From: a bacterium
Lineage (GTDB): Bacteria > Actinomycetota > Acidimicrobiia > Spongiisociales > Spongiisociaceae
Length of the DNA stretch: 64,000 nucleotides
Direction: 5' to 3'
Assembly: GCA_028820935.1 (NCBI GenBank)
Contig: JAPPHZ010000021.1
Location: forward strand, 6,755 to 70,754
The notes under the pieces are model-generated. The model ran no database searches. It was not told the DNA's origin and saw only the letters and a list, made by a program, of their open reading frames with translations. The first letter of the stretch is position 1. Every line of letters begins with the position of its first letter. Shown here piece after piece: positions 44,974-52,351 of this stretch. A program made the position numbers and the translations under genes.

Positions 44974-47235
<2,262 letters not shown>

Positions 47236-47402: not shown

Positions 47403-47951
47403 ATGGCGCGTATCGAGGTCATTCCCGACGATTCCTGGGATGGTGAGCTCGGCGATCTCTATCCACGGGTCGTCGATCCCGCATACGGGCGGGTCGACAA
47501 CATCATGGCCGTGCACTCGCTCAACCCCCGCGGCATGGCTGCGCACCTGCGCCTCTACGAGTCGGCGATGGCCGGCACCGCGACCCTCCGCAAGGTCGAG
47601 CGGGAGCTCATCGCCCTGGTGGTGAGCCTCGAGAACGACTGCCACTACTGAGTCGTCCACCACCGGCGCGGTCTGCGCCGCCTGATCAAGGACGATGAGC
47701 TGGTCGAGGCGATCGAACAGGACTGGACAGCCGCCGACCTGTCGCCCAAGCGGCGGTCGATGCTGAGGTTCGCCGTCAAGCTGACCACCACGCCCGCCGC
47801 AATGGACGGAGCGGACGTAGAGGCCCTGCGATCGGCCGGTTTCTCCGATCGTGACATCCTCGACATAGTCGAGGTGGTCGGCTACTACGCCTACGCCAAC
47901 CGGGTCGCCGACGGTCTCGGCATCGAGACCGAATCCTGGATCCCCGACTGA
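47403..47951 (+). CDS. AhpD/carboxymuconolactone-decarboxylase-family peroxidase-related protein with an in-frame UGA (candidate selenocysteine) at 47649-47651
   Basis: ORFs 47403..47651 and 47760..47951 share one frame, and the frame is open from 47652. Read-through gives ...ELIALVVSLENDCHY[U]VVHHRRGLRRLIKDDELV.... This is the CMD core N.C.YC..H with the second Cys replaced by UGA. Confidence 0.7.
47652..47696 (+). promoter_or_regulatory. Candidate bacterial SECIS stem-loop
   Basis: The apical stem is CGGCGC/GCGCCG (47664-69 / 47675-80) with loop GGUCU. The loop begins 18 nt after UGA. The outer helix is GUCGUCC / GGACGAU (47652-58 / 47690-96). Confidence 0.55.
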
Positions 47952-51247: not shown

Positions 51248-52351
51248 GTGACAGCAGCCGAGCGTTCCGCCTCCCTCAGCCGGCGCCGGCCGGCCCTGGT
51301 GGGGTTGGTCGCGCTCGCGCTGGTGGTCGCCGCGACTTCTCCGGCGCCGGCCGCCACCGGCGCCGTCGGAGGCTTCACCGACGTGCCGGAGGGCAACGTG
51401 CACGAGCCAGCCATCAACGCCCTCGCGGAGATGGGCCTGTTCGAGGACACCCTTTGCGAGGACGGCCTCTTCTGTCCCGGCGACCCGATGAAGCGGTGGG
51501 TGATGGCCGTCTGGCTGATCCGGGCGCTCGGTGGCGAGGTCACCACGACCGGGTCCTCCCGCTTCGCGGACGTCGACGCCGCCTCGTGGTGGTCCCCCTA
51601 CGTGGAGGAACTCGCCGACCGGGAGATCACCAAGGGATGCAGAACTGAACCGCTCCGCTATTGCCCGGACGGGACCGTAACCCGGGCCGAGATGGCCAGC
51701 TTCCTGGTCCGCGCCTTCGATCTCGAACCCGCCGAGTCGTCGGCCGGGTTCACCGACGTGGACGTGGGCAGCATGCACGGAGCCGACATCGACGCCCTGT
51801 TCGCGGCCGGCGTCACCGCCGGCTGCGCGGACGATCCGCTCCGCTACTGCCCCGGCCAGTCCGTCAAACGGGGCGAGATGGCCACCTTCCTGCACCGGGC
51901 ATTGCTGAAACAGCAAGAGGAGGCCGGGATCAGCGACGATGTCCCAGATGTCAGCCTGACCGACGTTTCCACCGGCGACACCGTGGAGCTCCGGTCGCTG
52001 TTCACCGGCGACAAGGCGGTCATGTTCTGGTTCTGGGCCGAGTGGTGACCCACTTGCCGGGGGCACGCCCCCGAGGTCGAGCGGTTCGCTCGAGAGAATG
52101 CCGACAAGGTCAACGTGGTGGGCATCAACCCGCGGACATGGAACAATCTGGGCGAGGCTAGGAGCTTCGTGAGCACGTACCGGCTCACCTTCACCAACCT
52201 CTGGGACAGCTCGGATACCGTCCGGAGGCACTACGGCAGCCCCTACACGTCCAGGGCGCTCCTGGTCGACAAGCACGGCAACCGGGTGGAGCAGGCTCCC
52301 AGCCTCTTCTCCACCAGCAGGTTCCAGAGGCTGGTGGACGGCCTGGACTAG
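51248..52351 (+). CDS. Surface-anchored (3x SLH) TlpA/ResA-type thioredoxin-fold protein with an in-frame UGA (candidate selenocysteine) at 52046-52048
   Basis: A GTG start follows a GGGGAGAA SD. The leader is SLSRRRPALVGLVALALVVAATSPAPAA and three SLH units follow. ORFs 51248..52048 and 52115..52351 share one frame. Read-through gives ...AVMFWFWAEW[U]PTCRGHAPEVERF..., which is WCxxC with the first Cys replaced by UGA. Confidence 0.7.
52058..52073 (+). promoter_or_regulatory. Hairpin 9 nt downstream of the UGA (candidate SECIS core)
   Basis: CGGGGG-cacg-CCCCCG. The loop does not match the E. coli GGUC type. Confidence 0.35.

Follow-up and report, generated by a model that had tools for sequence, protein, structure and literature searches.

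Positions 47403-47951 of a 64,000-nucleotide (nt) stretch of DNA, referred to throughout as the window, raise the question of whether an in-frame UGA there ends a gene, marks a decaying one or encodes an amino acid. The window comes from a member of the Acidimicrobiia (Spongiisociaceae; assembly GCA_028820935.1, contig JAPPHZ010000021.1, positions 6,755 to 70,754 of the forward strand). A first-pass annotation made from the sequence alone had proposed a gene of the AhpD/CMD family next to katG, with UGA at the second cysteine (Cys) of a CxxC motif and a downstream hairpin resembling the selenocysteine insertion sequence (SECIS) of Escherichia coli fdhF. We consider it highly probable that 47403-47951 is one intact gene for an AhpD-like thiol/selenol peroxidase-related protein, with UGA codon 83 decoded as selenocysteine (Sec). 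The gene and its UGA are as follows.

47403-47951, + strand: predicted AhpD-like (TIGR01926, 'peroxidase-related') selenoprotein gene, assigned by homology and 57 full-length orthologous loci

47649-47651, + strand: in-frame UGA, codon 83, at the second redox position of the C80-H-Y-U83 motif, placed by alignment of orthologues and homologues

The region is a single frame of 182 codons followed by a terminal TGA, and its sole other in-frame TGA is the one at 47649-47651. This is the only stop separating the open reading frames (ORFs) 47403-47651 and 47760-47951, which lie in the same frame, and the read-through product is ...ELIALVVSLENDCHY[TGA]VVHHRRGLRRL..., with the local context SLENDCHY[TGA]VVHHRRGLRRL. 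Frame sharing is weak evidence here, because about 100 long open frames broken by one TGA were found in a scan of this high-GC window; the case stands above chance because homology runs across the TGA. Other TGA-broken frames in the window, and TGA codons followed by GGTYYG, were rejected as about 100 spurious matches, a redox-motif context being present only at 47649 and 52046. No in-frame start codon lies between the UGA and the ATG at 47760, and those 36 codons are conserved nonetheless, which makes two separate polypeptides implausible.

The proposed family assignment was borne out by profile and structure searches with the read-through protein. Pfam CMD matched residues 45-121 (6e-14, 52 bits against a cutoff of 23), the NCBIfam model TIGR01926 'peroxidase-related enzyme' matched residues 24-175 (146.4 bits against a cutoff of 81.8) and TIGR00778 scored 42 bits against a cutoff of 27.8. 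In the Protein Data Bank (PDB) homologues 3c1l (2e-31) and 2pfx (3e-30), the second Cys of CxxC aligns with the UGA. The nearest solved structures are 3c1l (Mlr4105), 2pfx, 2oyo and 6k40, and the fold is already fixed by solved homologues at E = 1e-31. Canonical AhpD, the AhpC-coupled Mycobacterium tuberculosis type (TIGR00777), was ruled out, with a score of 19.5 bits against a cutoff of 191.95 and no adjacent ahpC.

The orthologue set was obtained from a scan of one genome per species, which yielded 80 loci, 57 of them covering the UGA column. The first-pass annotation had suggested examining whether orthologues carry Cys or UGA in this column. TGA was found at the same codon in 57/57 orthologous loci, from 95% amino-acid identity (WTGI01, the nearest relative among the loci fetched) down to 59%, and TGT or TGC, giving C-x-Y-C, in 18 more distant homologues (<=45% identity), placing the UGA at the second Cys as proposed. 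The hosts of the 57 loci are sponge Acidimicrobiia metagenome-assembled genomes (MAGs; Ca. Poriferisodalis, Aldehydirespirator and Spongiisocius), marine MedAcidi-type genomes, Microthrix and a few bins named Pirellulaceae or Verrucomicrobiales. Three Sec-form orthologues with the same SECIS core (L051, L052 and L053; 59-62% identity) come from bins with these two names, pointing to either horizontal transfer of gene and SECIS or mis-binning.

The hairpin directly downstream of the UGA consists of the following elements.

47664-47680, + strand: putative SECIS core, stem CGGCGC (47664-47669) / GCGCCG (47675-47680) with loop GGUCU (47670-47674), supported by invariance and covariation

47652-47696, + strand: outer 7-bp pairing of 47652-47658 with 47690-47696, in the minimum-energy fold of this sequence

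Hairpin conservation was assessed in an ungapped alignment of 49 distinct 60-nt sequences, counted from the UGA. The loop starts 18 nt after the UGA (nt 22), as first described, without indels in any of the 49 sequences, and columns 22-28 (GGTCTGC) are invariant, synonymous sites included. The Gly90 codon is GGT in 56/56 genes, compared with 13% at the other Gly codons of the same genes and 4-29% at three other conserved Gly columns, and the Leu91 codon is CTG in 56/57 genes. In the inner stem (columns 15-21 with 27-33), 89% of cells are paired, falling to only 23-52% in slid registers, and compensatory changes occur in 4/7 pairs. Doubly changed cells numbered 14 against 4.4 expected, and the covariation score was reached by 0/500 shuffles. 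The seventh pair (columns 15/33) is present in most orthologues, while the window has C and C there and is unpaired. RNAalifold applied to the 60-nt alignment returned no more than 4 pairs, and its covariation term was close to zero; this signal is weak because the core hardly varies, and the explicit pair counts are more informative. Lying within the reading frame, the hairpin would fix the codons CGG-CGC-GGU-CUG-CGC-CGN, that is R-R-G-L-R-R.

The outer helix fared less well than the core. It is present in this sequence as described, and together with the inner stem and loop it makes up the minimum-energy fold, but across orthologues 72% of cells are paired, two of the seven pairs form in only about one sequence in two, and covariation does not differ from that of shuffles (111/500). 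It belongs to this sequence and its nearest relatives, and the conserved element does not include it. The proposed likeness to E. coli fdhF was confirmed: the string TGACACGGCCCATCGGTTGCAGGTCTGCACC... was found in fdhF in 5419/5426 E. coli genomes and places GGUC at nt 22-25 from the U of the UGA.

Relatives that encode Cys at the same position serve as a natural control on this conservation. Three independent full-length Cys forms (TGC) were found, at L096:6001-6552, L097:6001-6582 and L098:892-1443 (L099 and L100 repeat L098), with 56-60% identity and an adjoining SulP/STAS transporter gene. All keep the peptide HHRRGLRR, and in two of them the hairpin has lost nucleotides: the loop GGT has become GGC, and CGC at the closing pair has become CGG. 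The strict nucleotide invariance therefore appears to be specific to the UGA forms, and the hairpin remains in the Cys forms look like a fossil SECIS after Sec-to-Cys conversion. In the genome scan itself, the closest Cys-form homologues are L059 and L060, two copies in the Thaumarchaeota MAG REEA66 with 40-45% identity.

Several results weigh against the selenocysteine reading. Since the Cys forms keep the peptide although the nucleotides have changed, part of the RRGLRR conservation is probably at the protein level. The single sequence folds only slightly better than its shuffles: the 48-nt element scored z = -2.4, and other cuts ranged from -1.6 to -1.8. Among AT-rich orthologues the hairpin is down to about 4 bp and lies outside the minimum-energy fold. 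E. coli fdhF itself gave z = -1.3, and folding energy and single-sequence z-scores do not discriminate. No SECIS or other credible Rfam match was found in the whole window at gathering thresholds or in 47600-47760 at E <= 10; Rfam is without a model for this bacterial SECIS type. The upper stem of E. coli fdhF carries a bulged U that the stem CGGCGC/GCGCCG of the window lacks, although the bulge is a trait of the E. coli element and not of bacterial SECIS elements in general. Finally, phmmer and ARAGORN found no selA, selB, selD or tRNA-Sec gene in the window or in 95 loci from the two selenoprotein queries, the phmmer queries being E. coli SelA, SelB and SelD sequences, and the window contains no tRNA gene of any kind. 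Sec machinery in the source organism is supported through relatives, not directly.

The evidence from relatives came from a stepwise tRNA-Sec scan, in which a generic pattern led to Acidimicrobiia tRNA-Sec genes and these to a clade-specific pattern; the closest relatives of the window were not all sampled. The clade-specific pattern occurred in at least 120 stretches, almost all of them labelled as Acidimicrobiia or other Actinomycetota, and ARAGORN called tRNA-SeC in 119/120 of the matches listed. Among the matches listed, three genomes carry both a tRNA-Sec gene and a TGA orthologue: OY759762.1 (L004, L279), OZ241894.1 (L008, L298) and isolate 42010ebb (L022, L285). The tRNA-Sec gene of L279 is cut at the locus start, its 74 nt being identical to the matching part of L285. 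With tRNA-Sec in these three related genomes, the absence of Sec machinery that the first-pass annotation had named as refuting found no support. Genes selA, selB and selD adjoin selC in the Acidimicrobiia loci L237, L240, L243, L283 and L334, and at the tRNA-Sec loci of the sponge clade they were not found within the fetched 8-kb block. Published work points the same way: sponge-symbiont bins show an enrichment of SelA and SelB COGs (PMC5649159), and according to a preprint the Acidimicrobiia order Actinomarinales has complete Sec machinery (10.64898/2026.04.03.716425). As a separate observation, the Acidimicrobiia tRNA-Sec genes (L111, L122, L160, L180, L222-L337) are very uniform, of the form GGAGGTG...CCGCCTTCAAAGCGG...GGGTTCGATTCCCGTCCACCTCC.

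These results bear on the alternative that survives best, namely read-through of the UGA independent of Sec machinery: tryptophan (Trp, W) or Cys would be inserted by a near-cognate or suppressor tRNA, or the codon would be recoded locally, and the hairpin would only stimulate read-through. It draws on the indirect case for Sec machinery in the source genome, and on the W that public calls P0001, P0002 and P0004-P0006 show at this position, although that residue reflects the genetic code used by the caller and not data. The codon, however, aligns with a catalytic Cys, the classic Sec/Cys exchange, and GGUCUG stands at the fdhF position. Orthologue-bearing genomes with tRNA-Sec and the occurrence of selA, selB and selD in the class also run counter to it. 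In addition, TGA is an ordinary stop in the window, since katG and the AhpD-like gene both end in it, and there is therefore no global code reassignment; a second UxxC gene nearby shows the same pattern. We regard read-through of this kind as very improbable.

Less credible still is a pseudogene or split gene, in which a nonsense mutation would have cut an AhpD-like gene and the halves would now be decaying or separately expressed. Generic callers do give ORFs of 82 and 63 amino acids (aa), the 82-aa stump appears as 'peroxidase' in older NCBI records, and decayed copies exist in related genomes (a deletion in P0012 and remnants at L068 and L069). Against this stand the retention of the TGA in every orthologue down to 59% identity and the conservation of the start-less codons after it. 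Pairwise ratios of nonsynonymous to synonymous substitution rates (dN/dS) were 0.09-0.35 upstream of the UGA (codons 1-82) and 0.11-0.39 downstream of it (codons 95-182), with dS up to saturation, and no additional stops or frameshifts were found in the orthologues. Decay of the halves, which the first-pass annotation had named as a way for its proposal to fail, is not taking place, both halves being under purifying selection without further stops or frameshifts. In practice, comparison of the orthologous sequences refutes this explanation, to which we give scarcely any credence. A sequencing or assembly error at 47649-47651 for TGC or TGT has a negligible probability and is excluded because, although one substituted base (A to C or T) is all that a Cys codon would require, the TGA is carried by 57 independent assemblies, short- and long-read, and by three separate records of this same locus.

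Some copies depart from the intact Sec form. At L101:3001-3549 (GCA_024275815.1, JAJRYI010000263.1) the Sec codon is TTA (Leu), giving CHY-L-LTHHRRGLRR, and the hairpin is intact with a compensated stem, CGTCGC GGTCT GCGACG; the TTA may stem from a recent mutation that inactivates or alters the protein, or from an error in base calling. In some genomes degraded copies stand beside an intact one: P0012 (Ca. Poriferisodalis, 112 aa), L068:6001-6162, L069:6001-6219 and L026:827-1039. In P0012 an internal deletion takes out the CxxU site, and the others, L068 and L069 among them, are N-terminal remnants only.

If the UGA is decoded as Sec, as we conclude, the residue would lie within the catalytic set of the AhpD fold.

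47604-47663, + strand: putative AhpD proton-relay codons E68 (47604-47606), C80 (47640-47642), Y82 (47646-47648), U83 (47649-47651) and H87 (47661-47663), assigned from spacing and conservation

Residues E68, C80, H86 and H87 are invariant across the 57 orthologues, the relay set as a whole being invariant or close to it, and the relay spacing E-x11-C-x-Y-U-x3-H is the same as in M. tuberculosis AhpD and Pseudomonas aeruginosa PA0269. Mutagenesis work reportedly identified the second Cys as the nucleophile in M. tuberculosis AhpD. Sec83, in place of the second Cys of the AhpD CxxC and within the Glu68/Cys80/Tyr82/Sec83/His87 relay set, would likely be the attacking nucleophile. By analogy with the family, it may reduce peroxide or an oxidized peroxiredoxin partner, after which a Sec83-Cys80 selenenylsulfide would form and be re-reduced by a cellular dithiol. 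The protein is accordingly best described as a putative cytoplasmic enzyme with a predicted peroxidase or reductase role. For the decoding step, G23 and U24 of the fdhF loop are SelB contacts, and the loop GGUCU presents both at the fdhF distance from the UGA. By analogy with E. coli and Moorella, SelB carrying Sec-tRNA(Sec) would bind this loop and supply Sec once the UGA occupies the ribosomal A site; SelB binding and selenium insertion at residue 83 are predictions.

Two neighbouring genes had been drawn into the original proposal.

45013-47235, + strand: katG, catalase-peroxidase, 740 aa, 167 nt upstream of the AhpD-like gene, with two Pfam peroxidase domains

51248-52351, + strand: candidate selenoprotein gene, SLH plus AhpC-TSA/redoxin protein, motif W-U-P-T-C, TGA at 52046-52048 and hairpin at 52077-52093, supported by orthologue conservation

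The suggestion that the AhpD-like gene forms an oxidative-stress pair with katG applies here, where the two are adjacent with no terminator-like or promoter-like site found in the gap, but only the 7 closest loci share this adjacency. About 10 others, which lack a katG neighbour, have a gene for Cu/Zn superoxide dismutase (sodC) next to the AhpD-like gene, for example L004:6749-7492 on the - strand (Pfam Sod_Cu, 1.8e-37). Six-frame ORF clustering, which is noisy in high-GC DNA, found no conserved neighbour gene across the orthologous loci. An oxidative-stress theme recurs among the neighbours, but there is no conserved operon. In the window, the AhpD-like gene is flanked by katG and an MMPL transporter gene, and the sole nearby AhpC/TSA-family gene has SLH domains and lies 3.3 kb away.

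The TGA of that SLH-domain gene, 4.4 kb downstream of the AhpD-like UGA and in a UxxC pattern, had been put forward as a second case of Sec use, and this too held on comparison. The TGA of W-[TGA]-P-T-C is kept in 12/12 orthologous loci and in the tandem paralogues found (L086, L089, L090 and L092), and a conserved hairpin, TCGAGC-RGTTY-GCTCGA, starts 31 nt after it. This conserved UGA supports Sec decoding in the organism. Three public calls of 51248-52351, NCBI's included, all stop at 266 aa, and the redoxin looks like an unannotated, possibly cell-surface selenoprotein.

The significance of the AhpD-like gene is mainly a matter of annotation, since generic gene callers cut it at the UGA. 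The mis-splitting first described holds for the ENA calls (82 and 63 aa) and for older NCBI records, but the NCBI source-contig record of the locus (JAPPLL010000046.1, GCA_028819445.1) has one 182-residue product for the same contig. Public protein sets contain more than 100 clusters of C-terminal fragments of about 100 aa in addition to the 82-aa 'peroxidase' stumps. Five full-length homologues (P0001, P0002, P0004, P0005 and P0006) show W at the Sec column (CHYW), the TGA having been read as Trp by the caller. As Sec genes are cut at UGA or read as Trp, the selenoproteomes and antioxidant repertoires of marine and sponge-associated Acidimicrobiia are under-counted. For teaching, the locus also offers a clear-cut case of synonymous sites in a coding region being constrained by a SECIS, with Cys forms as the natural control.

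Because GGUCUG at +22 matches the apical motif of fdhF exactly, E. coli SelB might read this mRNA unengineered, and if so the gene would be well suited to testing the expression of a marine selenoprotein. A broader interpretation, that katG, the Sec-containing AhpD-like protein and the SLH Sec-redoxin make up a sponge-symbiont-specific, selenium-dependent oxidative-stress module, together with an fdhF-identical motif that E. coli SelB may be able to read, is speculative and in our view rather unlikely.

Among known systems, the element resembles the E. coli fdhF SECIS in having GGUCUG at nt 22-27 counted from the U of the UGA, in encoding that motif with the Gly-Leu codons GGU-CUG and in being an intra-ORF hairpin immediately 3' of the UGA. 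It differs in its loop, 5 nt in the window (GGUCU, closed by C-G) and 4 nt in fdhF (GGUC, closed by A-U), in its pure G-C stem and in a lower helix that is not conserved. The protein resembles M. tuberculosis AhpD (relay Glu118/Cys130/His132/Cys133/His137) and PA0269 (Glu36/Cys48/Tyr50/Cys51/His55; PMC3141380) in the identical relay spacing E-x11-C-x-[H/Y]-C-x3-H and in belonging to the all-helical CMD/AhpD-core fold family. It differs from both in having Sec for the second Cys and no adjacent cytoplasmic ahpC partner gene.

The closest known counterpart is the AhpD-like selenoprotein family itself (COG2128, CxxU), which the first-pass annotation had correctly named as already described. Zhang et al. 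were the first to report it, in 2005, from 27 Sargasso Sea sequences and with a SECIS predicted (PMC1088965). In the Global Ocean Sampling (GOS) data it ranked fourth in abundance among selenoprotein families, with 299 sequences (PMC2398784), and both a 2026 review on prokaryotic selenoproteins (PMC13188914) and BSepDB (PMC13326102) list it with TIGR01926. The gene is a member of this family, known since 2005 with its CxxU motif and SECIS included, and it poses no new biological question. The two share the TIGR01926 model, Sec at the second Cys, one Sec per protein, a SECIS directly downstream of the UGA and a marine setting. They differ in nothing essential, the copy in the window coming from a sponge-associated Acidimicrobiia MAG and its adjacency to katG being specific to the lineage.

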